This document shows positions 38,824-55,914 of a stretch of DNA of 64,000 bases, in pieces. Numbering within the stretch: the stretch's first letter is position 1; each line of letters opens with the position of its first letter. The stretch comes from Ilumatobacteraceae bacterium (lineage in GTDB: Bacteria; Actinomycetota; Acidimicrobiia; Acidimicrobiales; Ilumatobacteraceae): assembly GCA_017859785.1 (NCBI GenBank), contig JAFMMJ010000001.1:9618-73617 (forward strand). The letters are read 5' to 3'. Made by a program: the position numbers and the translations under genes. The notes under the pieces were generated by a model, which was not told the DNA's origin, ran no database searches, and saw nothing but the letters and a program-made list of their open reading frames with translations.

Positions 38824-38826
38824 GCC

Positions 38827-40553: not shown

Positions 40554-40566
40554 GCGGCGTCGAACG

Positions 40567-41457
40567 TCAGGCCAGCAGCTGCTCGTGCCAGAGGCGCGTG
40601 TCGGCCACCGAGTTGAAGGTGAACGAGTGGATCGCCTCAATGTCGAGCTCACCGGCGCACGCCGCCAACTCGACCACCATGTCGGTCGGGTCGAACCCGC
40701 CCGGTGACATGAGGGCCATCACCGTCGAACGGTTCTTCGACAGATAACGGAGCGAGGCTCCGATACCGAGGCGCGTGCCGACGGTCATCAGCCGGGTGCG
40801 GTCGACCACCCCGGGGAGCCCAAGCCGGATCGGCAGATGCATCCCGGCGGCGCGCTCGGCGCGCAACCAGTCGACGATTTTCTCGGTGTCGAAGCACATC
40901 TGAGTGGAGCACCACCCGTGCACCCCGGCCTCGTCGAGCACCGCCTGCTTGGCGAGGAGCTGCTCAGAGGCGACCGCGGCGTCGAACATGGCGTGACCAT
41001 CGGGGTACCCGGTGACGCCGATGGCCTTCATGCCGTGGTCGTGAGTCACGAGATCGCGCAGGAACGCCAGCGCCCCCTCATAAGGGCCGGCGGGCTCGGG
41101 CGCGTCGCCGGCGACGATGAACACCTCATCGACCCCTGACGACTTCAACCAGGAGGCGAGTTCCGCGGTGTGATCGGGACCCTCCACGAGTCGAGTAGCG
41201 ATATGCGGAACCGGCCGATGCCCGAGCGCCACGAGCCGGTCGGTGATCTCCCGAGTGGCCGGGATGCCCTTCGCCGGCGAGCAGGTCACCGAGACGTTCG
41301 CGCCAGGCGGCAGGTCATCGATGGCCTGCTCGACCGACTTCATCGGAATCAGCTCGTAATGGAGGCCGGTGACGAGTTCGCGCACGGCGGGGTCGTCGAC
41401 GCGGACAGCGGAGTCGCGACCGCGGCCAGGGATGAGTCGTTTGAGGGTGGTGAGCAC
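40567..41457 (-). CDS. metF: methylenetetrahydrofolate reductase family protein
   Basis: 296 aa with MTHFR TIM-barrel blocks (YELIPMKS..., VFIVAGD, CFD). GTG start with GAGAGGAG RBS. It is the last gene of the corrinoid methyltransferase operon. Confidence 0.8.
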   Translation of the reverse strand: MLTTLKRLIPGRGRDSAVRVDDPAVRELVTGLHYELIPMKSVEQAIDDLPPGANVSVTCSPAKGIPATREITDRLVALGHRPVPHIATRLVEGPDHTAELASWLKSSGVDEVFIVAGDAPEPAGPYEGALAFLRDLVTHDHGMKAIGVTGYPDGHAMFDAAVASEQLLAKQAVLDEAGVHGWCSTQMCFDTEKIVDWLRAERAAGMHLPIRLGLPGVVDRTRLMTVGTRLGIGASLRYLSKNRSTVMALMSPGGFDPTDMVVELAACAGELDIEAIHSFTFNSVADTRLWHEQLLA

Positions 41458-41469
41458 GTTCGCTCCTCT

Positions 41470-43035
41470 CTAGGCGAACTCGTCGGGGATCTCACCCCGG
41501 CGTCGCTCGACATATTCGGTCAGTTCCTCGGCGATCGCCTCGTCGAGCGGGGGCGGCTCATAGGAGGCGAGTTGCTCCTTCCAGATGCGGTTCGCGCGCT
41601 GGGCGGCATCGAGCCCTCCCTCCTCGGTCCACTGCTCGAAACTCGAGTTGTCCGAGGTCGTCGAGCGGTAGAAGGCCGACTCGAAGTTGGCGAGGGTGTG
41701 CGCCGTGCCGAGGAAGTGGTTGCCCGGCTCGTTATCGCGGATCGCGTCGACCGCCTGGCCGTTCTCCGAGAGGTCAAGGCCTTGCACGAGCTTGTGCATC
41801 GCGCCGAGTTGGTCGCAGTCGAGGATGAACTTCTCGTAGCCGATGGCGAGCCCACCCTCAAGCCAGCCCGCCGCGTGGAGCACGAAGTTGACTCCGCCAA
41901 GCACGGTCGGCATGAGTGTCGCCATCGACTCGTAGGCGGCCTGAGCATCGGGCAACTTAGAAGCGCACAGCGAGCCACCCGACCGGAACGGCACATTGAG
42001 TCGCCGGGCGAGGGCGGCAACCGTGTACAGCACGATCGCTGGCTCCGGAGTGCCGAACGTCGGTGCGCCGGTCTGCATCGACATCGACGAGGCGAACGAT
42101 CCGAACACGACCGGCGAGCCCGGCCGCACCAACTGCGCGAAGGTCATTCCAACGAGCGCCTCGGCGAGGGTCTGAGCCGCCACACCCGCCGGGGTGACGG
42201 GTGCCATCGCGCCGGAGAGAATGAACGGGGTGAAGATCGACGCCTGGTTGTTCTCGGCGTAGACCTCGGCGGCCTCGAGCATCGTCGCGTCCCACACCAG
42301 CGGCGAGGAGGCGTTGATCAGGCTGGTCATCACCGTTCGGTCGGCCAGATCGCCACCGAAGGCGATCCGGGCCATCTCCACGGAATCGGCGGCGCGCGAA
42401 CCAGCGGTCACCGAACCCATGAACGGCTTGTCGCTGTAGCGGAGATGCGCGTGCACCATGTCGAGGTGCCGCTTCGACACCGGCACATCGACCGGCTCGC
42501 ACACCGTGCCACCAGAGTGGTGGAGATACGGCGACATGTAGGAGAGGCGGACGAAGTTCTCGAAGTCGGCCAGCGTCGCGTAGCGGCGGCCGGCGTCGAG
42601 GTCGTGCACGAACGGTGAGCCGTAGTTCGGCGCGAACACCGTCGCGTCGCCGCCGATCTGCACGTTGCGTTCCGGGTTGCGGCCGTGCTGGGTGTAGATC
42701 GCTGGGGCAGTCGCGGTGACGATCGAGCGGCACAAACCCCTCGGGAATCGCACTCGCGTGCCATCGACATCAGCTCCAGCCGCTCGGAACCGCTCGATGG
42801 CGGATGGGTAGTCGCGGATCTCCACACCCACCTCGGCGAGGATGGTCTCGGCGTTGTGCTCGAGGAGCTCGAGGCCCTCAGACGACACGATGTCGAGCGG
42901 CGTGAGCGAGCGGGTGATGAACGCGTCCGCTCCCGTCGAAGCGGCAGCGCGGGCGGCTTTGCGGGCCGATCGCCCTCCCCCGCGGCGACCCGCTCGCTCG
43001 GAGCCGGTGTCAGTTGTGGTGTCGGCATCGGTCAT
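41470..43035 (-). CDS. MttB-superfamily (trimethylamine methyltransferase-like) methyltransferase, non-pyrrolysine type; quaternary-amine:corrinoid methyltransferase candidate
   Basis: 521-aa uninterrupted ORF with no internal TAG and MttB-family blocks throughout. The ATG overlaps the upstream stop (ATGA). Confidence 0.85.
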   Translation of the reverse strand: MTDADTTTDTGSERAGRRGGGRSARKAARAAASTGADAFITRSLTPLDIVSSEGLELLEHNAETILAEVGVEIRDYPSAIERFRAAGADVDGTRVRFPRGLCRSIVTATAPAIYTQHGRNPERNVQIGGDATVFAPNYGSPFVHDLDAGRRYATLADFENFVRLSYMSPYLHHSGGTVCEPVDVPVSKRHLDMVHAHLRYSDKPFMGSVTAGSRAADSVEMARIAFGGDLADRTVMTSLINASSPLVWDATMLEAAEVYAENNQASIFTPFILSGAMAPVTPAGVAAQTLAEALVGMTFAQLVRPGSPVVFGSFASSMSMQTGAPTFGTPEPAIVLYTVAALARRLNVPFRSGGSLCASKLPDAQAAYESMATLMPTVLGGVNFVLHAAGWLEGGLAIGYEKFILDCDQLGAMHKLVQGLDLSENGQAVDAIRDNEPGNHFLGTAHTLANFESAFYRSTTSDNSSFEQWTEEGGLDAAQRANRIWKEQLASYEPPPLDEAIAEELTEYVERRRGEIPDEFA

Positions 43036-45044
43036 GCCGGAACTCCTCTCGCTCTGCGTCTCGGTCGCCCCGATCCCGAAGCGGGAGCGGAGGCGGATGG
43101 TTTGGGAAGGTTGATCGCCGTCGCGAGGTGCGGGGTGGGATCGGTGCTGTGCGGCACCCCCATCGCGGCGACGAAGAGCTCTTGGAAGCGCGGCTCCGTG
43201 GCCGTCTCGATCTTCACGATGTCGTTGGCGGCGTCTTCAAGTTCGGCGCGCATCGTCCGCGACAGGAGCGCTTGAACGGCTCCGGTGCCGGCGGCGTTAC
43301 CAACAGAACGCACCTTCTCAACCGGGCAGTCGGGAACCAGACCGAGGACCAACGCCCGAAGCGGGTCGATATGGGCGCCGAAGGCACCGGCCAAGCGGAC
43401 ATCGGTGATCTCCGGCCGGCCGGCGTGCTCAACGAGGAGGTCGATGCCAGCACGCAGCGCCGCCTTGGCGAGTTGAATCGCTCGGACGTCGTTTTGAGTG
43501 ATCGCGATCCGGCTGCCTCCCACCTCGGAGAGGACGTAACTGAAGGTCCGACCGTCAGCCACCACCCGACTCGTGCGCTCGGCGAGCGATCCGTCGATCA
43601 CCCCATTGGAATCGATAACCCCGGCGAGGTACATCTCGGCGATCGCGTCGATCACACCTGATCCGCAGATGCCGCTCGGCCCGGATGGACCCGTCGCCGC
43701 TGAGAACCCCTCCTCATCGGACCAGAGATCGACACCGATCACCCGGAAACGCGGCTCGAGCGTGTCGCGGTCGATGCGCACCGTCTCGATCGACCCGTGC
43801 GTCGCCCGCTGGCCGCTGCTCAACTGGGCCCCCTCGAAGGCCGGGCCGGTCGGGCTGGAGGCAGCGAACACCCGCTCGCGATCCCCGAGGACGATCTCAG
43901 CGTTGGTGCCAATGTCGACGAGCAGTTGCGTGGTCTCCGAGCGGTGCGGACCCTCGGCGAGCACCGCCGCGGCGGTGTCGGCGCCGACGTGGCCAGCAAT
44001 GCACGGAGCCACGTAACAGCGGGCGTACGGCAGAGTGAGATCGAGGTCGCCGGCACGGGTGACGAGCGCGCGGTTCGTGGTGAGGGTGAAGGGGGCCTGG
44101 CCGAGAGGTGTCGGATCGAGGCCGAGCACGAGATGGTGCATGATCGGATTGCCAACGAGCACCACCTCGAGCACGTACTCGCGGAAACTCTCGATCTGGT
44201 CGACCAGTTCCCCGATCAGGCCGTCGACGGCGGTGCGGACGGCCGCCGTGAGTTCCGCCTCGCCTCCCGGATTCATCATCACGTACGACACGCGGCTCAT
44301 GAGGTCCTCGCCGAACCGGATCTGCGGGTTCATGCGCCCCGCGCTGGCCAGCACCTCGCCGGTGGAGAGATCGCACAGGTGCCCGGCGATGGTGGTCGAC
44401 CCGATGTCGATCGCCACGCCGAGCAAGGCGTCGACGAAGCCCGGCCACACGGCGACCACCTGGTCGCTCTCGTCGACGACGACCGTCACCGCTCCCGAGC
44501 CGCGATCGATCGCCGGCTGGAGCATGGGCAGGGCGCGCAACGGCACATGAGGGGCGGTTCGACCGTGCTGGTCTCGGACCGAGAGCCGGACGAGATCGGC
44601 CAGGCTCCGGTCGTCGCCGAGTTCGGGTTGGGGAACCTCGACGAACCACGCGGTGAACGACGGGTCGACGGTGAACGCCGGCAGGTCGAGGTCCTTTCGG
44701 ACCACCTGACGGTGCACCTGGCTCTCCGGTGGAACCTCGATCACCACGTCGCCACATACCGTGGCGGCGCAGCCGAGTCGGCGCCCCGCGACGAGCGGTC
44801 GCGCTCCTCGGTAGTCGGTCTCGATGGATGCCCGCGGACCGAGCGCGTCGTTAGCGACCTCCATCCCCCACTTCGCGTGGACACCGGTCGACACCTCGAC
44901 CTGGCAGCGCCCACAGATACCGCGACCACCGCAGACCGTGTCGAGATCGACGCCGAGCGAACGGGCGGCATCGAGCACGGACGTTCCCTCCTCGACCGAG
45001 CCGTTCAGGCCCGACGGGGTGAAGACGATCCGATGCTCGCTCAT
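43032..45044 (-). CDS. corrinoid reductive activase (RamA-like: [2Fe-2S] ferredoxin domain + ASKHA/DUF4445 ATPase)
   Basis: N-terminal plant-type ferredoxin motif (CGGRGICGRCQV) followed by a large ASKHA-fold domain. Confidence 0.85.
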   Translation of the reverse strand: MSEHRIVFTPSGLNGSVEEGTSVLDAARSLGVDLDTVCGGRGICGRCQVEVSTGVHAKWGMEVANDALGPRASIETDYRGARPLVAGRRLGCAATVCGDVVIEVPPESQVHRQVVRKDLDLPAFTVDPSFTAWFVEVPQPELGDDRSLADLVRLSVRDQHGRTAPHVPLRALPMLQPAIDRGSGAVTVVVDESDQVVAVWPGFVDALLGVAIDIGSTTIAGHLCDLSTGEVLASAGRMNPQIRFGEDLMSRVSYVMMNPGGEAELTAAVRTAVDGLIGELVDQIESFREYVLEVVLVGNPIMHHLVLGLDPTPLGQAPFTLTTNRALVTRAGDLDLTLPYARCYVAPCIAGHVGADTAAAVLAEGPHRSETTQLLVDIGTNAEIVLGDRERVFAASSPTGPAFEGAQLSSGQRATHGSIETVRIDRDTLEPRFRVIGVDLWSDEEGFSAATGPSGPSGICGSGVIDAIAEMYLAGVIDSNGVIDGSLAERTSRVVADGRTFSYVLSEVGGSRIAITQNDVRAIQLAKAALRAGIDLLVEHAGRPEITDVRLAGAFGAHIDPLRALVLGLVPDCPVEKVRSVGNAAGTGAVQALLSRTMRAELEDAANDIVKIETATEPRFQELFVAAMGVPHSTDPTPHLATAINLPKPSASAPASGSGRPRRRARGVPA

Positions 45045-45056
45045 GTCAGGAATCGC

Positions 45057-45956
45057 TCACTCGGAGCGACGCCTCCTCCGACCCTCTCGGCTACCGCGAC
45101 CACCCTCGGCGGAAGGGTCGCGGTTCTCTCGGATCCACGCGGCGCAGTCACGGTCGTTGCCCATGAGCACGTCGGCGGCCATGACGGCTGCTTTCACCTC
45201 GGCGTGCATGGGGTTCATGATCGCCGAGGTCATCCCAGACGAGATCGCCATCGACAAGAAGGTGCCGGTGACGACATGACGATTCGGGAGACCGAAGCTC
45301 ACATTCGAAGCGCCGCAGGTGGTGTTGACCCCGAGTTCCTCGCGGAGCCGGCGCACCAGCGCGAACGCCTGGCGACCGGCCGTTCCCATCGCGCCGATCG
45401 GCATGACGAGCGGGTCGACGACGACATCCGCGGCGGGGATCCCGTGATCGGCGGCCCGCTCAACGATCCGCTTGGCGACGGCGAAACGCACATTGGGATC
45501 CTCCGAGATGCCGGTCTCATCGTTCGAGATCGCCACCACGGCAGCGCCATGACGAGCGACGAGTGGAAGCACCCGCTCCATGACCTCGTCCTCGCCGGTG
45601 ACCGAGTTGACCAATGCCTTGCCCTGGTAGACGCCGAGGCCGGCTTCGAGCGCCTCGATGATGGAGGAGTCGATGGAGAGCGGGACGTCGGTGATCGACT
45701 GAACGAGTTGCACCGCCCGCGCGAGCAGCGCCGGCTCATCGGCGAGCGGAATACCCGCGTTCACATCGAGCATGTGCGCGCCGGCGGCCACCTGGGCGAG
45801 AGCGTCGGCCTCGACGCGGGAGAAATCGCCGTTCTTCATCTCCTCGGCGAGGAGTTTGCGTCCGGTCGGGTTGATCCGCTCACCGATCATCACAAACGGT
45901 CGCTCGAATCCGATCACGACCTCTTTGGTCGCGGAGCTGATCAGGGTGTCGGTCAT
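45057..45956 (-). CDS. methyltetrahydrofolate:corrinoid methyltransferase (pterin-binding domain, MtgA/MeTr-like)
   Basis: Pterin-binding barrel blocks (IGERINPTGRK, LDVNAG, LVNSV, CGASNVSFGLP). Confidence 0.85.
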   Translation of the reverse strand: MTDTLISSATKEVVIGFERPFVMIGERINPTGRKLLAEEMKNGDFSRVEADALAQVAAGAHMLDVNAGIPLADEPALLARAVQLVQSITDVPLSIDSSIIEALEAGLGVYQGKALVNSVTGEDEVMERVLPLVARHGAAVVAISNDETGISEDPNVRFAVAKRIVERAADHGIPAADVVVDPLVMPIGAMGTAGRQAFALVRRLREELGVNTTCGASNVSFGLPNRHVVTGTFLSMAISSGMTSAIMNPMHAEVKAAVMAADVLMGNDRDCAAWIRENRDPSAEGGRGSREGRRRRRSE

Positions 45957-45973
45957 GGGTTCTCCTCGGAGGA

Positions 45974-46360
45974 TCAGTCGGGTGTGTCGTTCTCGTCGTC
46001 GAGTTCCTCGAGGGCGAGGAGTTCGGACTGTGGGACCTCGTCGTCGACGATGTCGGCTTCGAATCCGCCGACATAGGCGAGTCGTCCGAGATGCTCGCGG
46101 GGGTATCTCGCCTCGAGGCGGGCGGCCTCGGCCTCAGCAGCCTCGGCTGGATCGCCGTCGATGGGCACCGACACGCGACGCCACTGAGCGACGTCCTCGT
46201 CGGCGGTCACGATGCCGGCCTTGCGCTTCGCACGATCGATCGCGCGCTGGAACTTGGCTGACAGCGCCACTTGATGGCGCTCCCGCCCGCGCTGTCCATT
46301 CACTTGAGCAGGGATGTCCCGCCACAAGATGGTGACCACCTCTGCCCCACCTCGCGGCAT
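45974..46360 (-). CDS. small conserved hypothetical protein embedded in the corrinoid operon
   Basis: 128 aa (..VTILWRDIPAQVNGQ..). It is tightly packed between DUF1638 and the methyl-THF methyltransferase. The acidic C-terminus is low-complexity. Function unknown. Confidence 0.6.
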   Translation of the reverse strand: MPRGGAEVVTILWRDIPAQVNGQRGRERHQVALSAKFQRAIDRAKRKAGIVTADEDVAQWRRVSVPIDGDPAEAAEAEAARLEARYPREHLGRLAYVGGFEADIVDDEVPQSELLALEELDDENDTPD

Positions 46361-46361
46361 C

Positions 46362-46963
46362 TCAGACCCCCGCCCCGCTCAACCCGACGGCGACGGCCTC
46401 GCGAAGGTGCTCACGACCGGTGGCGATGATCTCCAGCGGAAGGGCCAAGCGGCGGGCGGCCGCCTCAGCCGCCTCTCGCACCTCTGGCTCGTCACCTTGG
46501 GTGAGCAACACAACGCGCGTGTACGCGGCGAAGTACATGTCGCGCAGTTCCGGGTGTCGGTCGAGACCGAGGCCGGACCACACGAGGGCGTCGAAGTGCC
46601 TGGCGAGGAAATCGGTCAAGTAGAAGGTGCCGAGCTCCTCTGAGTGAAGGCGTTCGAACTCGTCGACACCGCTCAAGAAGGCGTAGCAGTGAGCGCCCGG
46701 AAGGCGCCGAACATCCCGCGGGGTCGAAGCGATCCAGGCGTCGAGCAGGCCGCCGGTGCCGCAGTCGGCGTAACCGAGGAGGACGCTCCGGTCGAGTGGT
46801 TCATCGCTGAGTCGCTCCTCGATCGCGGGAACGATCCCATCGGGTCGGTTGTGCAACGGCGCGGGCAGGTAGTCGACCTCGACGGATTCGGCGAGTTCGT
46901 CGACCTCCAGCACGGCCCGCAGCTCACGGGCGAGAGCACCGCAGGCGAGCACGAGCGGACGGG

Positions 46964-46967
<4 letters not shown>
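46362..46967 (-). CDS. DUF1638-domain protein
   Basis: 201 aa. The start overlaps the corrinoid-protein stop (ATGA). Pattern LACGALARE...YLPAPLHNRP...GYADCGTGG is typical of DUF1638. Confidence 0.7.
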
Positions 46968-47689
<722 letters not shown>

Positions 47690-47791
47690 CTCCTGGGAAC
47701 ACGCTCAGAGAGCCCCGAGGGGTCCTCGCTCATGGGTATTGGAATCCATGCGACCCTGCGGTCGGACCCCGTGATTCACTTCCGGAACTTG

Positions 47792-47808
47792 GTTCCGTCA
47801 TACGGAAC
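47792..47808. promoter_or_regulatory. 17-bp palindromic operator upstream of the corrinoid operon
   Basis: GTTCCGT-CAT-ACGGAAC has perfect 7-bp arms. It lies about 100 nt upstream of the corrinoid-protein start. A second dyad, ATACGGA-N5-TCCGTAT, overlaps it at 47800-47818. Confidence 0.55.
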
Positions 47809-47906
47809 AGGTCCGTATGGTGAAATTCTAGCATCCCGAACTGCGACCTGTGACATCCGTCAAGCCCACCATTCCGCCAGGCGGAACCACCGTCTCCGTG
47901 GCCGAT

Positions 47907-48665
47907 TCAGGGCTGGAGACTGCCCGCGAGGCGCTTCGACACGCGCGCAGCGGTGCGCACCACGGCACGGGTGATCGCGTCACGTCGGTCCGGATCGGGG
48001 AACCGATAGGCCGGGCCGTGAACATGGATCGCGGCGATCACCGATCCCGCCGGATTGAAGATCGGCGCCGCCACCGAGTTGATGCCCTCGGCCATCTCCT
48101 CCATCGTCCAGGCGAAACCGTCGCGGCGGACCGACTCGAGGCGCCGAATGATCGCAACCGGGTCGGTGACGGAGCGCTCACACCAGGGTTCGAACGGGTC
48201 GGCGAGAGCCGCCGCCTGCTCCTCGTCAGAGGAGAACGCCAGCAGAACCAACCCTGAGGAGACCACGTGAGCGTCGACGGTTTCTCCGGTCCAGTCGCGC
48301 AACTGCACCTCTTGGCCAGCGTTCACTTGATCGAGGTAGTAGACCCCGCGGCCCTCCAAAACACCGATCCCCGCGTCCTCTTCGAGCAGGTCCACGAGGT
48401 CCTGGAGATGCGGACGGCTGATCGAGACGATGTTGCGACCCGGTGATGCGGCGGCGCTCAGCTCGATGAGGGTCTCCCCCAGTCCGTAGGAGCTGGAGTT
48501 CTCGCTCTGCTCGACCGCGCCGAGATCGACGAGGGTCGACAGCAGGCGCGCCACCGTGCTCTTCGGGAGGTCGGTCCGCTCGGCGATCTCGGACACGCCA
48601 GCCGGTCCGGTGGACAGGCTGCGCAGCACCGAGAAGGCGCGGTTGACTGACTGGACTCCTGACAT
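47907..48665 (-). CDS. IclR-family transcriptional regulator
   Basis: Trimmed to ATG 48665 (GGGAGG RBS). N-terminal HTH (VQSVNRAFSVLRSLS...GVSEIAERTDLPKSTVARLL) and a C-terminal IclR effector domain. Confidence 0.88.
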   Translation of the reverse strand: MSGVQSVNRAFSVLRSLSTGPAGVSEIAERTDLPKSTVARLLSTLVDLGAVEQSENSSSYGLGETLIELSAAASPGRNIVSISRPHLQDLVDLLEEDAGIGVLEGRGVYYLDQVNAGQEVQLRDWTGETVDAHVVSSGLVLLAFSSDEEQAAALADPFEPWCERSVTDPVAIIRRLESVRRDGFAWTMEEMAEGINSVAAPIFNPAGSVIAAIHVHGPAYRFPDPDRRDAITRAVVRTAARVSKRLAGSLQP

Positions 48666-48684
48666 GTTCCTCCCTGATCTCCCA

Positions 48685-48705
48685 CTGTTCCACAATGTGG
48701 AACAG
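48685..48705. promoter_or_regulatory. perfect 21-bp palindrome upstream of iclR (candidate IclR operator)
   Basis: CTGTTCCAC-AAT-GTGGAACAG lies 20 nt upstream of the iclR ATG. Confidence 0.6.
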
Positions 48706-48739: not shown

Positions 48740-49621
48740 TTAGAACGCGCCGAGCATCCTCGCGGCGGCGAGGGTGTTCTCGAGCAGGCAGCCGATCGTC
48801 ATCGGACCGGTCCCACCGGGCATCGGCGTGATCGCGCCTGCGACCGCTTGCACTCGATCGAAATCGACATCGCCGACGATGCCGTCAGCCGTGCGCGACA
48901 CGCCGACATCGAGCACCGCGGCTCCTGGTCGGACATGGTCGGGACCGATCATGTGCGCCTGGCCGGCGGCCGCGACGATGATGTCGGCCTCGCGACACAC
49001 CTCGATCAGATCGGATGTGCGCGAGTGGGCAAGGGTGACCGTCGCATCGCAGCCCCGTCGACCGAGCAGCAGCACCTGAGGGAGCCCGACCAAGGTCGAC
49101 CGCCCAACGACGACCGCTCGACGACCGGAGGTCTCGATTCCGTAACGCTCGATCAGGCGCATGACACCGAGCGGCGTGCAGGGCACATGCCCGGGCAAGT
49201 CACGAACGAGGCGACCGAGTGAGCGCTCGGTGAGCCCGTCGACATCCTTCTCCGGTGGCAACAGTGCGAGGACCGGCTCCGGGTCAAGATGCGCTGGCAG
49301 AGGGAGCTGCACGAGGATCCCGTGCACCGTCGGGTCAGCCACGAGGGCGGCCACCTGCTCCTCCACCTCAGCCTGGGTGGCCGACTCCGGAAGTTCGACC
49401 CCACGCGAGACGAGACCGGCCTCCTCGGCCTTGCGGTGCTTCATCCGCACATAGATCTGGCTCGGCTTGTCGGCGCCGACGAGCACCGTCGCGAGGCACA
49501 CCTCAGGCGAGCCCGCCGCCTCAATCTCAGACCGGAGGCGCGACACCGTCTCATCGCGCAGACGGTTGCCGTCGAGGAGGATCGCCCCTCCGGCTGTGCG
49601 CTCGACGCTGTCGGAGGTCAC
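48740..49621 (-). CDS. folD: bifunctional methylene-THF dehydrogenase / methenyl-THF cyclohydrolase
   Basis: FolD blocks (LATVLVGADKPSQIYVRMK, GILVQLPLP, VVVGRSTLVGLP, PMPGGTGPMT). The start overlaps the fhs stop. Confidence 0.92.
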   Translation of the reverse strand: MTSDSVERTAGGAILLDGNRLRDETVSRLRSEIEAAGSPEVCLATVLVGADKPSQIYVRMKHRKAEEAGLVSRGVELPESATQAEVEEQVAALVADPTVHGILVQLPLPAHLDPEPVLALLPPEKDVDGLTERSLGRLVRDLPGHVPCTPLGVMRLIERYGIETSGRRAVVVGRSTLVGLPQVLLLGRRGCDATVTLAHSRTSDLIEVCREADIIVAAAGQAHMIGPDHVRPGAAVLDVGVSRTADGIVGDVDFDRVQAVAGAITPMPGGTGPMTIGCLLENTLAAARMLGAF

Positions 49622-51315
49622 GAAAGGCCCACGATCTGGCCGTCGTCATCGATGTCGATGCGGGCGGCCGCGGGCGAGGAGGCGAGACCGGGCATAGTGC
49701 TCATGTCGCCGCAGATCGGGTAGACGAAACCAGCACCGACGCTCGCGCGAGCCTCGCGCACCGTCAGGGTGTGTCCGGTGGGCGCGCCCTTCAGGCTCGG
49801 ATCACCGGAGATCGACAGGTGCGTCTTGGCGATGCACACCGGCAGTCCTCCGAAGCCGTTGTCCTCGTAGTTCTGCAATTGGCGGCTGGCGGCTGCGGTG
49901 TAGTCGACACGCGCCGCGCCATAGATCGTGGTGGCGACCTTCTCGATCTTGGTCTTCAGCGGATCGGAGTCCTCATAGAGGAAGCCGAAGTCGCTCGGCT
50001 CCTCACACGCCTCGATGACCGCCTCGGCCAACTCGACCGCGCCCGCTCCCCCGTCGGCGAAGTGGGTGCACACAGCGACGCGCGCGCCGAGCGACTCGCC
50101 GAAACGTCGGATGGCCTCGTGCTCGGAGGGATGGTCGGTCGGGAAGGCGTTGATGGCGATCACCGGGGTGACACCGTGAGCCTTCACGTTCTCGACCTGC
50201 TTGCGTAGGTTCTCCGCTCCAGCCATCACGTCGTCCGGGTTCTCGGCGAGCAGGTCCTCGGGGAGGGCCTTGCCGGCGACGATGCGGTACTTGCCGGAGT
50301 GGGCCTTAAGCGCGCGGACCGTCGCCACGAGCACCGCGGCATCGGGGGTGAGTCCTGAGGCGCGGCACTTGATGTTGAAGAACCGCTCGGCCCCCATATC
50401 GGCGCCGAAGCCAGCCTCGGTGATGAGGTAATCGCCGCCGCGGATACCGATGAGGTCGCCGACGACGGAGGAGTTGCCGTGGGCGATGTTGCCGAACGGA
50501 CCGGCGTGGACGATCACCGGGGTGTTCTCGATCGTCTGCAACAGGTTGGGAGCCAAGGCGTCGCGCATGATCACCGACATCGAGCCGGCACCGTTCAAGT
50601 CCTCAGCGGTCACCGGACGGTTGTCGTTCGTGTAGCCGACCACGATGCGACCGAGACGCGCGCGGAGATCCTCAGCGGAGGTGGCGAGCGCGAGGATCGC
50701 CATGACCTCCGAAGCCGCGGTGATGTCGAAGCCGGTCTGCCGGGTCACCCCGTCCATTCGGCCGCCGAGCCCGATGACGATGTTGCGCAACGCGCGATCG
50801 TTCACGTCGAGCACGCGACGCCAGGTGATGTTGTTGAGGTCGAGTCCGAGTTCGTTGCCGTGATGGAGGTGGTTGTCGACCATCGCCGACAGCAGGTTGT
50901 GGGCAGCGGTTACCGCATGGAAGTCGCCGGTGAGGTGCAAGTTGAGCAGTTCCATCGGGATGACCTGGCTGTAGCCACCTCCGGCCGCTCCACCCTTGAT
51001 GCCGAAGGTCGGCCCCATCGAGGGTTGCCGAAGCGAAAGGACCGCGTTCTTGCCGACATGAGACATCGCCTGGCCGAGACCGACCGAGGTGGTCGTCTTG
51101 CCCTCACCGAGCGGGGTCGGGGTGATGGCGGTGACGACGACGTACTTCGCCTTCGGCCGATCGGCCAGTTCGTCGATCGCGTCGAGGCTGATCTTGGCCA
51201 ACTCGGTGCCGTAGGGCCGGAGCAGGTGCTCTCCGATCCCCATCTTCGCCGCGACCTCGGGCATCGGCTTCGGAACGGCGGCTCGGGCGATCTCAAGATC
51301 GGACGGAAAACTCAT
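49618..51315 (-). CDS. fhs: formate-tetrahydrofolate ligase
   Basis: FTHFS signatures (TPTPLGEGKTTT, GGAAGGGYSQV, HAGPFGNIAHGNSS). 565 aa. Confidence 0.95.
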   Translation of the reverse strand: MSFPSDLEIARAAVPKPMPEVAAKMGIGEHLLRPYGTELAKISLDAIDELADRPKAKYVVVTAITPTPLGEGKTTTSVGLGQAMSHVGKNAVLSLRQPSMGPTFGIKGGAAGGGYSQVIPMELLNLHLTGDFHAVTAAHNLLSAMVDNHLHHGNELGLDLNNITWRRVLDVNDRALRNIVIGLGGRMDGVTRQTGFDITAASEVMAILALATSAEDLRARLGRIVVGYTNDNRPVTAEDLNGAGSMSVIMRDALAPNLLQTIENTPVIVHAGPFGNIAHGNSSVVGDLIGIRGGDYLITEAGFGADMGAERFFNIKCRASGLTPDAAVLVATVRALKAHSGKYRIVAGKALPEDLLAENPDDVMAGAENLRKQVENVKAHGVTPVIAINAFPTDHPSEHEAIRRFGESLGARVAVCTHFADGGAGAVELAEAVIEACEEPSDFGFLYEDSDPLKTKIEKVATTIYGAARVDYTAAASRQLQNYEDNGFGGLPVCIAKTHLSISGDPSLKGAPTGHTLTVREARASVGAGFVYPICGDMSTMPGLASSPAAARIDIDDDGQIVGLS

Positions 51316-51412
51316 CGTTGTTCACCCCTGATTCGGTGGTTTGTCGGCAGAATGAGCGGGCTGTTGGCCCGCCGACGCGTGGCCGGCGCGGATTGTCGCA
51401 CAGGTCACACTC

Positions 51413-51447
51413 GTTCCACAATACGGATTCATTCCAAGATGTGGAAC
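51413..51447. promoter_or_regulatory. two adjacent imperfect copies of the 17-bp operator in the fhs / formate dehydrogenase divergent region
   Basis: GTTCCAC-AAT-ACGGATT (51413-51429) and ATTCCAA-GAT-GTGGAAC (51431-51447). The outer arms are perfect matches to the iclR palindrome. Confidence 0.55.
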
Positions 51448-51478
51448 GATACACCGCTTCTCAACTAACCTAAACGTC

Positions 51479-53395
51479 ATGCCACGGCACCGCCACCAGC
51501 CTCTCGACCGCCTCACCACCCCACTCGTTCGGGAGAACGGCGCGCTCCGCCCCGCCACCTGGGACGAAGCCCTCGACCGGGCCGCCGAGGGATTCCGCCG
51601 CGCCGGTGGCGGTCAGTCAGTCGGTGTGTTCTCCTGCTCGAAGTCGACAAACGAGATGAACTTCATCGCGCAGAAGCTCGCCCGAGTCGCACTCGGTACG
51701 AACAACATCGACTCCTGCAACCGAACTTGACACGCTCCCTCGGTGGTCGGTCTGGCCGCCACATTCGGAGCGGGAGGAGGCACCTCCTCCTACGCGGAGG
51801 CCGAGGCCGCCGACGTCATCATCATGTGGGGCTCGAACGCCCGCAACGCGCACCCGATCTTCTTCCACCACGTGCTCACCGCCGTGAACAACGGCGCGCG
51901 CCTGTTCGTGGTCGACCCTCGACGCAGCGAGACGGCGCGCTTCGCTGACCGCTGGCTCGGACTCGAGGTCGGCACCGACATCGCGCTCTCCAACACGATC
52001 GCCCGCGAGATCATCCACGCCGGTCTCGCCCACACCGACTTCATTGAGCGGGCCACCAGTGGATTCGAGGAGTACGCCGCGTCGGTCGAGGAGTGGACCC
52101 TCGAGCGCGGTGAGTCGGTCACCGGCGTGCCAGCCGAAGCCATCCGAGAACTCGCCCACGCCTACGCCGGCGCGAAGGCCGCCCAGTTGTGCTGGACCCT
52201 CGGCATCACCGAGCACCACAACGGTGTCGACAACGTCCTCTCACTGTGCAACCTCGCCCTCCTCACCGGCCAGGTCGGGCGCTACGGCGCCGGACTCACC
52301 CCATTGCGCGGACAGAACAACGTCCAGGGAGGCGGCGACATGGGCGCGCTTCCCAACAAGTTGCCCGGCTTCCAAGACGTCACCGACGACGAGGCTCGAG
52401 CGAAGTTCGACGCGCGTTGGTCAGCGACCGTCCCACCGGAGAACGGCTGGCACCTCACGCAGATGTTCGACGCGATGGAGCGCGGCGACCTCACCTCGCT
52501 ACTCGTCATCGGCGAGAACCCGGCGCAGAGCGAGGCCGACGTCTCGCGGGCGATCGACCTGCTCTCCTCCCGCGATCACCTGGTCGTTCTCGACATCCAC
52601 ATGACCGGCACCGCCGAACTCGCCGACGTCGTGTTGCCGGGGAGCGCCTCATGGTGCGAATCGGATGGCACGGTCACCAACTCCGAACGTCGAGTGCAAC
52701 GCGTCCGCAAGGCCATCAACCCACCCGGCGAGGCCCGCGACGACATCGACATCCTGCTCGACCTCGCCGCCCGTCTCGGCCACGACTGGAACTACCGCGA
52801 TCACGAGGAAATCTGGGACGAGTTGCGGTCGCTGTCACCCATGCACGCCGGCATGCCGTGGTGGCGTCTCGAGGAACTCGGCGGCATTCAGTGGCCCTGC
52901 TATTCAGAAGACACGCTGGAGCCGCCCTTCCTCCACGGTCGCCTGTGGGCCGAGGACCCCGCCGAGCGCGGTCGACCCGCCCCGTTCGCCGTCGTCATCG
53001 ACGAGCCACCCGTCGAGGCCGTCGACGAGGAGTTCCCGCTCCGCCTCACCACCGGTCGACGTCTCGACTCGTACAACACCGGCGTGCAATCGGGCGGGTT
53101 CTCCTCGCCAAATCGCGCGGGTGAGACCGTCGACGTCTCACCTGGTGACGCTGACCGCCTCGGAGTCGCCAATGGCGAGATCGTCCGCGTGAGCTCGCGA
53201 CGCGGCGCGGTCGAGGCGCCGATCAGGATCGACCGGGGACTCCGCGACGGGCTGGTATTCATGACCTTCCACTTCCCCGATGAGGTCGATGTGAACCAGT
53301 TGACGATCGACGCCGTCGACCCCCGTTCGGGAACGGCGGAGTTCAAGGCTGCCGCTGTCCGTATCGACCGGATCACCCCGGCGGCGACAGGCTGA
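51479..53395 (+). CDS. formate dehydrogenase catalytic subunit, molybdopterin (bis-MGD) module only. The in-frame TGA at 51728-51730 is read as selenocysteine.
   Basis: ORFs 51479..51730 and 51743..53395 share one frame. The junction reads NNIDSCNRT-U-HAPSVVGLAATFGAGG, matching the CxR(V/L)-U/C-H-xPSVxGL active-site block of FdhF/FdhA. A SECIS-like hairpin follows. The start ATG has no obvious RBS. Confidence 0.8.
51731..51771 (+). promoter_or_regulatory. bacterial SECIS-like mRNA hairpin
   Basis: The upper stem GGTGGTC (51742-51748) / GGCCGCC (51754-51760) has the loop GGTCT and starts 11 nt after the TGA, the same spacing as in E. coli fdhF. The lower stem is GCTCC (51734-51738) / GGAGC (51767-51771). 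Confidence 0.65.
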
Positions 53396-53401
53396 GCAGA
53401 C

Positions 53402-55045
53402 ATGGAGGCAATCAAGCGGACGACCCCGGCATCCGATGCCGAGCGCGAGGCGATCGAGAGCGTGCTCGGGCCGTCCGACGACCGTCTCGGTCGCGACGCT
53501 GTCGCCGGTCATGTCGTCCGTGGGCAGCGGCACCTGCTGCTGCCTTGTCTCCACGCCCTCAATGACCGGATCGGCTGGATCAGCTCTCCAGCGATCGATC
53601 ACCTCGCCACGCGACTCGGCGCCTCCCCCGCCGAGATCCACGCGGTAGCCAGCTTCTACGGGCTCTTCTCTCTCAGCCCCCGTGAGCCCGTCCAGCGCCA
53701 CGTCTGCATCGACCTCGCCTGCCGGGCGGCCGGCGGGCCGACTGAACACAGCGTCGACCACGAAGCGCACCCCGCGCCCTGCCTCGGACTCTGCGACCGC
53801 GCCCCCGCCGCCATCACCATCGGCGGCCACGACCCCGAACCGGACCCCGCGTCCGCCGCCGTCGATCGCGCCGAGGACGACGTCCTGCTGCGGCGAGTCG
53901 GCGCGGGCGACCCGGTCGACCTCGACGCCTACCTCGCCGACGGCGGGTTCTCAGCACTCGAGCGCGCCCGAGATCTCGGCCCCGAGGGAATCATCAGCGC
54001 CGTCGAGGCCTCTGGACTCACCGGTCGGGGCGGAGCCGGATTCCCGACGGCCCGCAAATGGGACGCGGTCCGCACCCAGCCCGTCACCCCCCACCACCTG
54101 ATCTGCAACGCCGACGAGTCCGAACCGGGCACCTTCAAGGATCGGACCCTGATCGAGAACGACCCGTACGCCCTGATCGAGTCGATGGCGATCGCCTCGC
54201 TCGCCATCGGCTGCGAACTCGGGCGGGTATACCTGCGCGGCGAGTATCTCCGCGCCCACCTGACCCTGTCGACAGCCATCGAGCGCTGCCGCTCCGCCGG
54301 TTTGCTCGGAGCGTTGGCGGGCTTCGATATCGAGATCATCCGCGGCGCGGGCGCCTACATCTGCGGGGAGGAGACGGCGATCTTCAACTCCATCGAGGGA
54401 TACCGCGGCGAACCACGGAACAAGCCGCCGTTCCCGTTCGAGTCGGGGCTGTTCGGTGAGCCGACCGCGGTGAACAACGTCGAGACGTTGATGAACGTGC
54501 CCTCCATCATCGCCGAGGGCCGCCAAGCAGACCGCCGGCTCTTCTGCTTGTCGGGCGCCGTGCGCCGCCCCGGCGTCATCGAAGCGCCCATCGGCATCAC
54601 CCTCGGAGCGCTGATCGAGCGCGCGGGAGGTCTCCGTGAGGGCTCGGAGCTTCGCGCCGTCATGCTCGGCGGAGCCGCCGGCGGCTTCGCCGGTCCGGCC
54701 GACCTCGATCTTCCCCTCGATGACGCCCGACTCCGCGAGGTCGGGCTCACCCTCGGCTCCGGCGTCGTGATGGTCCACGATCAGCACGTCGACCTCGTCG
54801 ATCAATTGCGACGGATCGCCGCGTTCTTCCGCGACGAGTCCTGCGGGCAATGCGTCCCCTGCCGCGTCGGAACCGTCAGGCAGGAAGAGGCCATCGAGCG
54901 ACTCGCCTCCGGAACGGGCGAGGCCGACCTCTCACTGCTGCGCGATATCGCTGGCGCCATGCGCGACGCGAGCATCTGCGGTCTTGGTCAGACGGCGGCC
55001 AACGCGATCCAGTCGGCCGTCGTGCGGCTCGGGGTGCTGACATGA
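53402..55045 (+). CDS. NAD(H)-binding diaphorase subunit: fused NuoE-like [2Fe-2S] and NuoF-like FMN/[4Fe-4S] domains (FdsG-FdsB type)
   Basis: NuoE cysteines (VCIDLAC ... CLGLCDRAP). NuoF motifs GLTGRGGAGFPTARKW, ICNADESEPGTFKDR and ESCGQCVPCRVG. Confidence 0.88.
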   Translation: MEAIKRTTPASDAEREAIESVLGPSDDRLGRDAVAGHVVRGQRHLLLPCLHALNDRIGWISSPAIDHLATRLGASPAEIHAVASFYGLFSLSPREPVQRHVCIDLACRAAGGPTEHSVDHEAHPAPCLGLCDRAPAAITIGGHDPEPDPASAAVDRAEDDVLLRRVGAGDPVDLDAYLADGGFSALERARDLGPEGIISAVEASGLTGRGGAGFPTARKWDAVRTQPVTPHHLICNADESEPGTFKDRTLIENDPYALIESMAIASLAIGCELGRVYLRGEYLRAHLTLSTAIERCRSAGLLGALAGFDIEIIRGAGAYICGEETAIFNSIEGYRGEPRNKPPFPFESGLFGEPTAVNNVETLMNVPSIIAEGRQADRRLFCLSGAVRRPGVIEAPIGITLGALIERAGGLREGSELRAVMLGGAAGGFAGPADLDLPLDDARLREVGLTLGSGVVMVHDQHVDLVDQLRRIAAFFRDESCGQCVPCRVGTVRQEEAIERLASGTGEADLSLLRDIAGAMRDASICGLGQTAANAIQSAVVRLGVLT

Positions 55046-55914
55046 CAACGATCGACGGCACCGCTTCGGACACAGCGACGGTCGAGGCGATCATCGACGG
55101 GGTAACCGTTCGTGTGGCCGAAGGCACGACGATCCTCGACGCCTGCGGCGGTCGGGGATGCGGCATTCCCACCCTGTGCTACGGCGAGACGATCACCCCA
55201 CGCAACGCCTGCCGCGTCTGCATGGTGGAGGTGGAGGGCTCGCGCACCCTGGTTCCCTCCTGCTCGCGTCCGGTGACCGAGGGCATGGTCGTCACGACGC
55301 GTTCCGAGCGGATCGACCACTCGAGGCGGATGGTGCTCGAGTTCCTCGGCTCCTCGGTCGACCTCTCGCTCACCGACCATGTCGAAGAGTGGAACACCGA
55401 GTACGGCGCCGACCCGACGCGATACGGCTCAGAGGCCGCTCGAGTGGACGAGCCGGTTCGCATCGACAACGACCTCTACATCCGCGACTACTCCAAGTGC
55501 ATCCTGTGCTACCAGTGCGTCGACGCTTGCGGAGAGCAGTGGCAGAACAGTTTCGTGATCGACATCGCCGGACGGGGCTTCGACGCTCGGGTGTCGACCG
55601 AGCACGACGTCTCACTCCCTGATTCCGGATGTGTCTACTGCGGCAACTGCATCCAGGTCTGCCCGACCGGAGCGCTGATGTTCACCTCGGAGTACACCAT
55701 GCGCCAAGCGGGCACCTGGGACGAGTCGCGTCAGACCCAGGTCGACACGGTCTGCGGATATTGCGGGGTGGGCTGCAACCTCACCCTCCACGTGCAAGAC
55801 GACTCGATCGTGAAGGTGACCTCACCAGCCGACAGCGGCATCACGAGCGGCAACCTCTGCGTGAAGGGACGCTTCGGCTTCCAACACGCGCAGAACCGTC
55901 CCTCCGCCGACTGA
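55042..55914 (+). CDS. formate dehydrogenase alpha-subunit N-terminal Fe-S module, encoded as a separate gene ([2Fe-2S], two ferredoxin-type [4Fe-4S], and the molybdopterin-oxidoreductase Fe4S4 domain)
   Basis: Trimmed to ATG 55042 (ATGA overlap with the upstream stop). Cysteine motifs seen: LCYGE..ACRVCMV..SC, CILCYQCVDAC, CVYCGNCIQVCP and CGYCGVGCNL...CVKGRFGF. The protein ends exactly where the 51479 ORF's homology begins. Confidence 0.85.
   Translation: MTTIDGTASDTATVEAIIDGVTVRVAEGTTILDACGGRGCGIPTLCYGETITPRNACRVCMVEVEGSRTLVPSCSRPVTEGMVVTTRSERIDHSRRMVLEFLGSSVDLSLTDHVEEWNTEYGADPTRYGSEAARVDEPVRIDNDLYIRDYSKCILCYQCVDACGEQWQNSFVIDIAGRGFDARVSTEHDVSLPDSGCVYCGNCIQVCPTGALMFTSEYTMRQAGTWDESRQTQVDTVCGYCGVGCNLTLHVQDDSIVKVTSPADSGITSGNLCVKGRFGFQHAQNRPSAD

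Follow-up and report, generated by a model that had tools for sequence, protein, structure and literature searches.

How could a formate dehydrogenase work when its large subunit is cut in two, the halves are encoded back to front and, as a result, the Fe-S cluster next to the metal site is carried by a protein of its own? This question is raised by three genes of an Ilumatobacteraceae contig, within a 64,000-nt window (the whole stretch of DNA that was analysed), which by their sequence make up a working-looking NAD-linked formate dehydrogenase locus. An earlier note had described the alpha subunit as split and its parts as permuted (bis-MGD module, NuoE/NuoF fusion, Fe-S module), and the Pfam content agrees with this. 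The genes are tightly packed, with a gap of 6 nt between genes 1 and 2 and an ATGA overlap between genes 2 and 3. The features of the region are:

48740-49621, minus strand: folD, by Pfam, divergent from the fdh operon
49618-51315, minus strand: fhs, by Pfam, divergent from the fdh operon
51411-51449, no strand: perfect inverted repeat of 10 bp, TCGTTCCACA / TGTGGAACGA, with 19 nt between its arms, located between the divergent fhs and fdh genes
51466-51471, plus strand: candidate -10 hexamer TAACCT (TANNNT), ending 7 nt before the gene 1 ATG
51479-53395, plus strand: gene 1, bis-MGD catalytic subunit, 638 aa with Sec84 (PF00384 Molybdopterin, PF01568 Molydop_binding)
51728-51730, plus strand: in-frame UGA decoded as selenocysteine at the metal-ligand (catalytic) position (SCNRT-U-HAPSV), from codon alignment and Sec machinery
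51734-51771, plus strand: SECIS element, in which 51734-51738/51767-51771 form the lower helix, 51743-51748/51754-51759 the apical helix and 51749-51753 the loop (GGUCU)
53402-55045, plus strand: gene 2, NuoE-NuoF fusion (diaphorase; partial PF01257 2Fe-2S_thioredx, PF01512 Complex1_51K, PF10531 SLBB, PF10589 NADH_4Fe-4S)
55042-55914, plus strand: gene 3, Fe-S subunit, 290 aa (PF13510 Fer2_4, two Fer4, PF04879 Molybdop_Fe4S4)

The cut falls in the linker directly after the FS0 domain. In alignments to Rhodobacter capsulatus FdsA (6tg9_A), residues 21-305 are covered by gene 3 and 307-931 by gene 1, and the TIGR01591 profile is divided in the same manner, positions 1-50 being matched by gene 3 and 51-672 by gene 1. 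In both cases the alignments abut, as anticipated by the proposal that the C-terminus of gene 3, CVKGRFGFQHAQNRPSAD, continues into the N-terminus of gene 1. Pfam identified no Molybdop_Fe4S4 domain in gene 1, which thus lacks an FS0 domain of its own; its score of 635 bits against TIGR01591 is just under the cut-off of 666, as expected with 50 profile positions missing. The best PDB matches of gene 1 are the formate dehydrogenase catalytic subunits 7qv7_S, 7bkb_D, 7vw6_A, 1aa6_A and 6tg9_A, and one_C_dehyd_B was a weak match in the profile search. Across 48 orthologues 143 of the 638 positions are invariant, including U/C84, H85 and R277 of the RGQNNVQG motif.

Gene 3 supplies ligands for a [2Fe-2S] cluster (C46, C57, C60 and C74), two ferredoxin-type [4Fe-4S] clusters (C153/156/159/163 and C197/200/203/207) and the metal-proximal FS0 [4Fe-4S] cluster (C238/241/245/273), the last accompanied by K275. 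An alignment of 15 gene 3 orthologues of 55-80% identity shows no variation at any of the 16 cluster cysteines or at K275. The AF2 model of this subunit is poor (pLDDT 58). Gene 2 has the FMN/NAD(H) site together with a [4Fe-4S] region of the N3 type and a [2Fe-2S] motif of the N1a type; its matches to the NCBIfam models nuoF_fam and nuoE_fam lie under their cut-offs, and domain searches found no extra bifurcating-type ferredoxin domains in it.

The same layout is common to at least about 160 actinobacterial genomes, including Streptomyces. Of the Acidimicrobiia genomes sampled, about 72 of 301 had it; in the rest of the Actinomycetota it was present in 4 of about 370. The split in this order was seen in each of the 22 loci retrieved from Acidimicrobiia and in every locus with enough flank among those of 80 GTDB species, a set in which complete, single-contig chromosomes are represented, as are cultured strains of Streptomyces, Nonomuraea and Amycolatopsis. 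Overall, the order MGD-NuoEF-FeS was found in ~100 informative related loci from Acidimicrobiia, Streptomyces, Nonomuraea and Gaiellales. The split family forms a single clade (support 100), separate from the fused forms found in the class. These are distant paralogues of 35-38% identity, so it is not the case that the relatives all have an intact fused alpha subunit. Since the fused paralogues retain the canonical order NuoE-NuoF-[FeS·MGD], the arrangement studied here is, on this comparison, a cyclic permutation of it. Recurrence in relatives, together with the invariant ligands, supports the functional fission with gene-order permutation that had been suggested for this locus. We found no published description of the split layout; the parent kind of enzyme, MeFDH1/FdsABG, is already known.

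The extent first assigned to gene 1 is correct, but under translation table 11 the reading frame is not uninterrupted: an in-frame TGA, which had gone unremarked, divides it into 83 and 550 aa. In related loci the codon at this position is TGA in 44 cases and TGC or TGT in 46, the Cys forms constituting one nested clade of the split family. Comparative sequence evidence identifies the TGA as a selenocysteine codon, given the downstream SECIS hairpin with its compensatory changes and the presence of selA, selB, selD and tRNA-Sec in this 1.96-Mb genome. The hairpin has a predicted folding energy of -34.7 kcal/mol (z -3.3) and a codon register which we take to be the same as in E. coli fdhF. Rfam SECIS_3 matches positions 51725-51779 with 24 bits (E 0.044), far under the gathering score. 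The apical helix is 100% paired across 41 distinct Sec loci, and pair 18:30, at synonymous sites, is CG in 21 of these and GC in 20. Cys loci served as a negative control: none of 44 has the full helix, and their loop is variable.

Among characterised enzymes the closest is MeFDH1 (Fdh1AB; PDB 7VW6, 7E5Z), the tungsten-containing formate dehydrogenase of Methylorubrum extorquens AM1, which depends on NAD+. The N-terminal domain of its alpha subunit holds two [4Fe-4S] clusters together with a single [2Fe-2S] centre, and its beta subunit corresponds to FdsB plus FdsG (PMC10869683). The two systems share the alpha-side cofactors (bis-MGD, FS0, two ferredoxin-type [4Fe-4S] and one [2Fe-2S]), a single-polypeptide diaphorase equivalent to NuoE plus NuoF, and the lack of a His-ligated cluster at the dimer interface (PMC10869683). 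The Fe-S module aligns to residues 68-340 of MeFDH1 alpha and the MGD module to 372-979. However, the alignments show no more than moderate identity (429 and 134 bits), the alpha subunit of MeFDH1 is one chain of 989 aa rather than two proteins cut after FS0 with the catalytic part encoded first, and the aligned MeFDH1 chain has Cys in place of Sec.

The molybdenum-containing, NAD+-dependent enzymes of R. capsulatus and Cupriavidus necator (FdsGBACD/FdsABGD; PDB 6TG9, 6TGA) gave the top PDB match for the Fe-S module. They have the same chain of cofactors, from bis-MGD through FS0, two [4Fe-4S], [2Fe-2S] and the NuoF [4Fe-4S] to FMN, plus a NuoE-type [2Fe-2S], and fused Fds-type paralogues with the Fds gene order occur in the same class (L136-L139). 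The Fds enzymes, by contrast, have a fused FdsA, separate FdsG and FdsB subunits, the order G-B-A, an FdsD subunit and Cys as the active-site residue. FdsA also has an extra His/Cys3 cluster, A4, at the dimer interface; the corresponding motif, HxxxCxxCxxxxxC, is missing from gene 3 and its aligned orthologues, whereas the fused paralogues have it. This His-ligated cluster is off the electron pathway in RcFDH (PMC7171172).

The best matches for the catalytic module are FdhF-type enzymes (E. coli FdhH, 1AA6; Thermoanaerobacter kivui HDCR FdhF, 7QV7; 497 and 427 bits), with common Sec/Cys-His and Arg catalytic motifs. Unlike gene 1, these have their own N-terminal FS0, chain residues 1-57 having no counterpart here, and pass electrons to hydrogenase-type partners instead of a NuoEF diaphorase. 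A catalytic polypeptide that is naturally two proteins is found in the same superfamily in formylmethanofuran dehydrogenase, FwdB/FwdD. There, the C-terminal Molydop_binding cap (FwdD) is cut off and FS0 stays with the core, whereas here the cap is kept and FS0 leaves.

Taking as observed the domain content, the continuity of the halves, conservation, the Sec codon with its SECIS and machinery, and the grouping of the split family as one clade, we consider that the locus very probably encodes a soluble, NAD(P)+-linked Sec enzyme with Mo/W-bis-MGD, a formate dehydrogenase of the MeFDH1/FdsABG kind that consists of three polypeptides rather than two. We infer that these form a complex with the following electron path and acceptor. 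Formate would be oxidised at the Sec84/His85/Arg277 metal site of gene 1, and electrons would pass from the pterin across the subunit interface to the FS0 [4Fe-4S] cluster, with its conserved Lys275, in the gene 3 protein. From there, still within gene 3, the two [4Fe-4S] clusters of ferredoxin type and the [2Fe-2S] would carry them on to the [4Fe-4S] and FMN of the NuoE-NuoF fusion, where NAD+ would be reduced.

That the locus is instead a decaying gene, a rearrangement scar or an assembly artefact, in which a once-fused alpha subunit has been broken and the TGA is a nonsense mutation, is barely credible, although gene 1 is interrupted by a table 11 stop, has no visible RBS and belongs to an assembly from which fdhD is missing. 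The same split and order recur across independent assemblies, about 100 in number and with both single-contig chromosomes and cultured strains among them, which excludes the suggested assembly error; GC3 is 0.80-0.85 in all three gene frames, the ligands are invariant, 44 loci have the TGA at this codon with a covarying SECIS behind it, and the genome has full Sec machinery. This conservation effectively refutes a scar. The missing fdhD gene, which encodes a sulfurtransferase/chaperone needed by known metal formate dehydrogenases, could also mean that the operon is intact while the enzyme is inactive or poorly matured in this genome. In the assembly, estimated as 98.8% complete, neither a PF02634 search nor tblastn with four FdhD sequences from Acidimicrobiia gave a hit, and fdhD is present in 40 of 40 other Acidimicrobiia genomes with the operon. 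We nevertheless regard such a loss of function as quite improbable: because the assembly comprises 114 contigs, a single 0.8-kb gene can lie in a gap, the operon has no signs of decay, and retention of selA, selB, selD and tRNA-Sec would be costly if the enzyme were dead. As to the cofactor, MoaC is present in the genome and MobA-like proteins gave only a weak match.

It is very unlikely that NuoEF plus the Fe-S protein is an independent NADH-linked module serving other partners, with the MGD protein non-obligate or the module swapped between catalytic subunits. In favour of it, the 5 kb upstream of NuoEF-FeS in L119 (Halopolyspora) contain no MGD gene, the MGD gene of L053, L055 and L056 is parted from NuoEF-FeS by two genes on the opposite strand, and profile searches showed a resemblance of the Fe-S protein to HoxU. 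Against this, the Fe-S protein has FS0 and the CxKGRF lysine, whose known role is solely beside a bis-MGD cofactor, the MGD protein has no cluster and hence no electron exit, and the three genes occur together in essentially every locus.

A real enzyme of the proposed kind might yet run mainly in reverse in vivo, as an NAD(P)H-dependent CO2 reductase making formate for Fhs/FolD and C1 assimilation. The adjacent folD and fhs are predicted to provide a tetrahydrofolate-linked route to or from formate; the linkage is close in many genomes (L010, L011, L025, L027, L028, L050, L051, L065, L071, L100 and L132), both genes also serve the reductive route, and Sec-type formate dehydrogenases are often good at reducing CO2. 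Metal formate dehydrogenases catalyse reversibly (PMC7171172). The context genes also encode, however, a dimethylglycine dehydrogenase-like protein, ETF, an MTHFR-like protein, an MttB-family protein, RACo, a pterin-binding methyltransferase and a corrinoid protein, in which the DMGDH-like, ETF, MttB-type methyltransferase and MTHFR-like functions point to methyl oxidation generating C1-THF. NADH is also a thermodynamically poor driver of CO2 reduction, and we consider the reductive direction unlikely. That the adjoining genes are for the oxidation of methyl groups and tetrahydrofolate C1 units suggests that the enzyme oxidises formate with NAD+, most likely as the last step of a route encoded alongside it, from a methyl group through methyl-THF, formyl-THF and formate to CO2.

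The absence of a visible RBS for gene 1 had been pointed out correctly, with no GGAGG-like sequence upstream of the ATG at 51479. Such an absence is in keeping with a leaderless mRNA, and from the position of the candidate -10 hexamer we infer that the operon of genes 1-3 is probably transcribed in this form, starting at that ATG. L010, L011, L025, L050 and L051 likewise have a TANNNT hexamer that stops 6-7 nt ahead of the start codon, and the sequences are all different. The inverted repeat at 51411-51449 is a candidate operator, perhaps of the IclR-type regulator encoded at 47907-48695, and its GTTCCAC...GYGGAAC pattern is retained in L010, L050, L065 and L100.

The region 51479-55914 is filled by three co-directional genes, with 6 nt separating genes 1 and 2 and an ATGA overlap joining genes 2 and 3. 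Their Pfam content bears out the earlier note, which had placed the bis-MGD module first, a fused NuoE/NuoF-like diaphorase second and the Fe-S module last.

Features of the formate dehydrogenase (FDH) operon and the adjoining region
51479-53395, same direction as genes 2 and 3: gene 1 (MGD), catalytic bis-MGD subunit with Molybdopterin and Molydop_binding domains only (Pfam)
53402-55045, co-directional: gene 2 (NuoEF), NuoE-like [2Fe-2S] domain joined to a complete NuoF-like FMN/NADH/[4Fe-4S] module
55042-55914, co-directional: gene 3 (Fe-S subunit), Fer2_4 [2Fe-2S], two ferredoxin-type [4Fe-4S] motifs and Molybdop_Fe4S4, the domain of the metal-proximal cluster FS0
36286-48695, adjoining the FDH operon: methyl-group/C1 oxidation island (Pfam)

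Gene 1 carries the MopB core (PF00384, E 2.5e-65; PF01568, E 6e-27) and matches FDH chains in the PDB down to E 8e-148. The FS0 domain (PF04879), which Pfam did not find on gene 1, is on gene 3. The latter ends 12 residues past CVKGRF and, as claimed from the sequence, its C-terminus runs on into the N-terminus of gene 1: on the FdsA chain of Rhodobacter capsulatus FDH (RcFDH; 6tg9_A), gene 3 covers residues 21-305 and gene 1 residues 307-931. The same continuity appears in the NCBIfam Fdh-alpha model (TIGR01591), where gene 3 accounts for profile positions 1-50 and gene 1 for 51-672; gene 1, aligned only from position 51, scores 635.2 against a cut-off of 666.25. The HoxU/NuoG-like Fe-S part and the catalytic part are thus encoded by separate genes 1.6 kb apart, an arrangement seen in all relatives. 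Fifteen Fe-S modules of 55-80% identity share every one of the 16 cysteines that ligate clusters, as well as the CxKGRF lysine, and 143 of 638 positions of gene 1 are invariant among 48 orthologues, including U/C84, H85 and R277 (motif RGQNNVQG). An AF2 model of the Fe-S subunit built on the 15-sequence alignment was poor (mean pLDDT 57.9). The diaphorase domains of gene 2 are PF01512, PF10589 and PF01257, and a CxxxxC...CxxxC motif was spotted by eye in its translation. Pfam found no Fer4-type domains in this protein, and the lack of such extra ferredoxin domains argues against a bifurcating enzyme of the FdhF-HylABC or HydABC type.

Translated with table 11, gene 1 is broken by a TGA at 51728-51730 (SCNRT-[TGA]-HAPSVVGL), the site of the metal-ligating Sec or Cys in formate dehydrogenases. 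Within an invariant flanking motif, the aligned codon is TGA in 44 of 90 related loci and TGC or TGT in the other 46. Directly 3′ of the TGA lies a hairpin (-34.7 kcal/mol, z -3.3), coinciding with a weak Rfam SECIS_3 match (24 bits, below the gathering score). Because of the higher G+C content of the Cys genomes, a comparison of raw folding energy 3′ of the TGA between Sec and Cys loci was uninformative; pairs were counted on a fixed structure instead. Across 41 distinct Sec loci, 100% of the cells of the 6-bp apical helix are paired and the GGUCU loop is invariant. Pair 18:30, formed by synonymous third positions, is C-G in 21 and G-C in 20 of these loci, with zero mispairs. The full helix is kept in 0 of 44 Cys loci, where the loop is variable. 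The genome also encodes tRNA-SeC (aragorn, anticodon tca) and selA, selB and selD, all with matches above their cut-offs and the first two adjacent. Together, the aligned TGA and Cys codons, the covarying SECIS, the Cys control and the Sec machinery show that the TGA is a genuine selenocysteine codon, one that had gone unnoticed in the earlier note.

Gene calling is affected accordingly in at least one relative (locus L011, 4376-6331), where the Sec gene is broken into pieces of 78 and 568 aa, and a search of 50%-identity representatives returned mostly fragments among its matches. The representative library holds many ‘Fe-S’ proteins of 357-386 aa at ~40% identity (P0204, P0210, P0224 and others), which are probably fused Sec-FdhA proteins cut at the UGA by gene callers. 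Another library protein, P0129, is 1405 aa long, with its Fe-S module at residues 835-1099.

The lack of a visible ribosome binding site at gene 1 proved correct, a Shine-Dalgarno sequence being absent. Instead, a TAACCT (TANNNT) hexamer ends 7 nt 5′ of the ATG at 51479. Five orthologous loci, with otherwise differing upstream sequences, have a TANNNT hexamer (TAGTCT, TAAGGT, TACAGT twice and TACGAT) ending 6-7 nt before the start codon, a spacing from which we infer a leaderless mRNA of the actinobacterial kind. A scan for consensus sigma-70 promoters upstream of gene 1 gave no hit, a result that is uninformative for actinobacterial -10-only or leaderless promoters. The fhs-fdh intergenic region also contains a perfect 10-bp inverted repeat, TCGTTCCACA/TGTGGAACGA (51411-51420/51440-51449), kept as GTTCCAC...GYGGAAC in four related loci (L010, L050, L065 and L100), a candidate operator at which the nearby IclR-type regulator might act.

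More than 120 close homologues of gene 3, full-length at 275-307 aa, share its domain set, and many of them are labelled Ilumatobacteraceae. Of 301 Acidimicrobiia genomes sampled, 41 gave an Fe-S match at E ≤ 1e-96, and a further 31 or so carried a slightly more divergent Fe-S subgroup. The MGD-NuoEF-FeS order was found in 20 of 20 regions examined from the former group and 5 of 5 from the latter. The operon is rarer in other Actinomycetota (4 of ~370 genomes sampled). Scanning GTDB with one genome per species gave at least 80 loci, from many cultured Streptomyces, Nonomuraea, Amycolatopsis, Nocardiopsis and Herbidospora, from Gaiellales and Thermoleophilia MAGs, and from a few MAGs labelled Acidobacteriota, Eremiobacterota or Anaerolineaceae. 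Wherever the flank was long enough, the order was MGD-NuoEF-FeS, except at L119 (Halopolyspora algeriensis). There, NuoEF-FeS is present with no MGD gene in the 5.2 kb upstream, and the catalytic partner may be unlinked or missing. Two related chromosomes match the window further, in that FolD-Fhs is divergent from MGD-NuoEF-FeS.

The earlier note had left room for a rearrangement scar or an assembly error. Both are excluded by the shared order across relatives and the invariant ligands. Open frames of 873-939 aa at some Fe-S matches, considered as fused alpha subunits, were rejected as stop-free frames of G+C-rich DNA; these loci have the same split order as the window. Fe-S matches in two pieces (genomes G103, G074 and others) are in fact single ORFs with a divergent linker and the same gene order. 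In one Ilumatobacteraceae sublineage (L053, 3124-5086; likewise L055 and L056), two opposite-strand genes, of 364 and 291 aa in L053, part MGD from NuoEF-FeS, so the MGD gene must be transcribed separately there. Genome G267 has a second, partial Fe-S-module-like ORF (L140, 12262-12864; query residues 89-284, 55% identity) 4 kb downstream of a complete operon.

Canonical fused enzymes occur in the same class (L136-L139), encoded as NuoE, NuoF and then a single ~930-aa alpha subunit whose Fe-S and MGD parts share a reading frame. Their identity to the window proteins is 35-38%; they are Cys enzymes and contain an HPLDCLTCxxxGDC motif. Set against these paralogues, the window order is indeed permuted, as first read: MGD-NuoEF-FeS is a cyclic permutation of the module string E-F-FeS-MGD. 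It likewise differs from FdsABG and Fdh1AB, in which the diaphorase precedes alpha (fdsG-fdsB-fdsA). When the catalytic module was placed in a tree, the 48 split-type sequences grouped as a single clade, set apart from the fused paralogues by a long branch (SH-aLRT 100). Nested within it, the Cys forms from Streptomyces, Streptosporangiaceae, Amycolatopsis and Nocardiopsis make up one clade whose sister group is Sec-type Nocardioidaceae, and Sec to Cys is one change on this tree. The split clade and the nested Cys clade imply that fission took place once, in a Sec-type ancestor, and that the split outlasted the change from Sec to Cys. With Sec ancestral and the split retained in the Cys forms, Sec-related pressure may have given rise to the layout but does not maintain it. 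The simplest conceivable route to the permutation would be for the operon to duplicate in tandem and then lose the outer parts.

By homology, electrons would pass from bis-MGD to FS0, through two [4Fe-4S] clusters and the [2Fe-2S] cluster to the NuoF [4Fe-4S], and on to FMN and NAD+. Methylorubrum extorquens AM1 FDH (MeFDH1) has two [4Fe-4S] and one [2Fe-2S] besides FS0 in its alpha N-domain, and a single beta chain as the counterpart of FdsB plus FdsG (PMC10869683), a cofactor inventory equal to that predicted for the window enzyme. The His/Cys3 cluster motif is absent across the split-family sequences compared. The missing cluster corresponds to RcFDH A4, which lies at the dimer interface, off the bis-MGD-to-FMN pathway (PMC7171172), and the main electron chain would thus be intact. 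The window enzyme is predicted to work as MeFDH1 and FdsABG do, but without two defining features, the fused alpha subunit and the gene order. Because FS0 and K275 are on a 31-kDa protein and the pterin is on a 70-kDa protein, the unusual first hop would have to cross a subunit interface.

To our knowledge, the proximal [4Fe-4S] is on the catalytic chain in all structurally known members and in other bis-MGD enzymes. The window enzyme would be the first case in the Mo/W-bis-MGD superfamily of a pterin-to-FS0 hop, via the conserved Lys, that crosses an interface. That the trans-supplied FS0 goes beyond a neutral fission, with domain I made from two chains, an assembly checkpoint and a permutation placing the Sec gene first, seems unlikely. 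At such a checkpoint, the free catalytic subunit would receive its cofactor, sulfurated by FdhD, and its Sec before docking; the FS0-bearing NuoEF-FeS module would dock last and close the site. The cyclic permutation would put the Sec gene first on a leaderless mRNA.

Upstream of the FDH operon are folD, fhs and an IclR regulator gene. The adjoining island, to which the regulator gene belongs, also encodes a B12-binding corrinoid protein, DUF1638, a pterin-binding methyltransferase, a RACo activase, a non-Pyl MttB-family methyltransferase, an MTHFR-like protein, ETF alpha and beta, and a dimethylglycine-dehydrogenase-like DAO-FAO_M-GCV_T protein. Judged from gene content, the set would take methylated amines by way of methyl-, methylene- and formyl-THF to formate, with FDH as the last, NADH-yielding step. 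The opposite direction, in which CO2 reduction would feed Fhs, we consider unlikely. In abundant aquatic and soil Acidimicrobiia, whose operon adjoins methyl-group/THF C1 oxidation genes, FDH capacity is easily overlooked because the Sec gene is cut in two and the pieces are generically named. The three window proteins are already in public annotation under such generic names.

Metal-dependent NAD-linked FDHs are intensively studied as reversible CO2/formate catalysts. The predicted chemistry here is ordinary; what makes the enzyme interesting is that FS0 is supplied in trans, that the family is broad and that cultured carriers are available. A natural, ancient and widespread trans-FS0 version lends itself to studying how an interface is tolerated by the pterin-to-FS0 hop and by domain I. 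The modular ~70-kDa catalytic subunit, available in Sec and Cys forms, might pair with other electron modules, and Streptomyces, Nonomuraea and Amycolatopsis offer culturable carriers for a direct test. Non-pathogenic cultured carriers of the Cys type include Streptomyces parvulus JCM 4068 (L090), Nonomuraea cavernae (L104) and Amycolatopsis eburnea (L084). A full-text literature search found neither an account of an alpha subunit cut behind FS0 or of the MGD-NuoEF-FeS order nor a characterised member of the split family. Split alpha subunits and actinobacterial enzymes are both absent from a 2026 Chem Rev review of metal FDHs.

The genome encodes MoaC and has a weak MobA-like match only. A PF02634 HMM search and tblastn with four Acidimicrobiia FdhD sequences did not find fdhD in the assembly, which is rated 98.8% complete in 114 contigs; given the number of contigs, an assembly gap hiding the gene is the simplest explanation. 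In the Acidimicrobiia sample, fdhD occurs in each of the 40 other genomes that carry the operon, often straight after the Fe-S gene. Streptomyces scabiei and Nonomuraea have it as gene four of the operon, and it lies directly 3′ of the Fe-S gene in L111 and L106; in L084 it was not seen at that position. The sole other genome of the same genus (G071) lacks the split operon; at its locus L128, which has no nucleotide similarity to the window genome, fdhD adjoins a different MopB enzyme with 34% identity to gene 1. In Streptomyces, Nonomuraea and Amycolatopsis (L111, L106 and L084), a gene for an ApbA/PanE-like reductase is found directly 5′ of the MGD gene.
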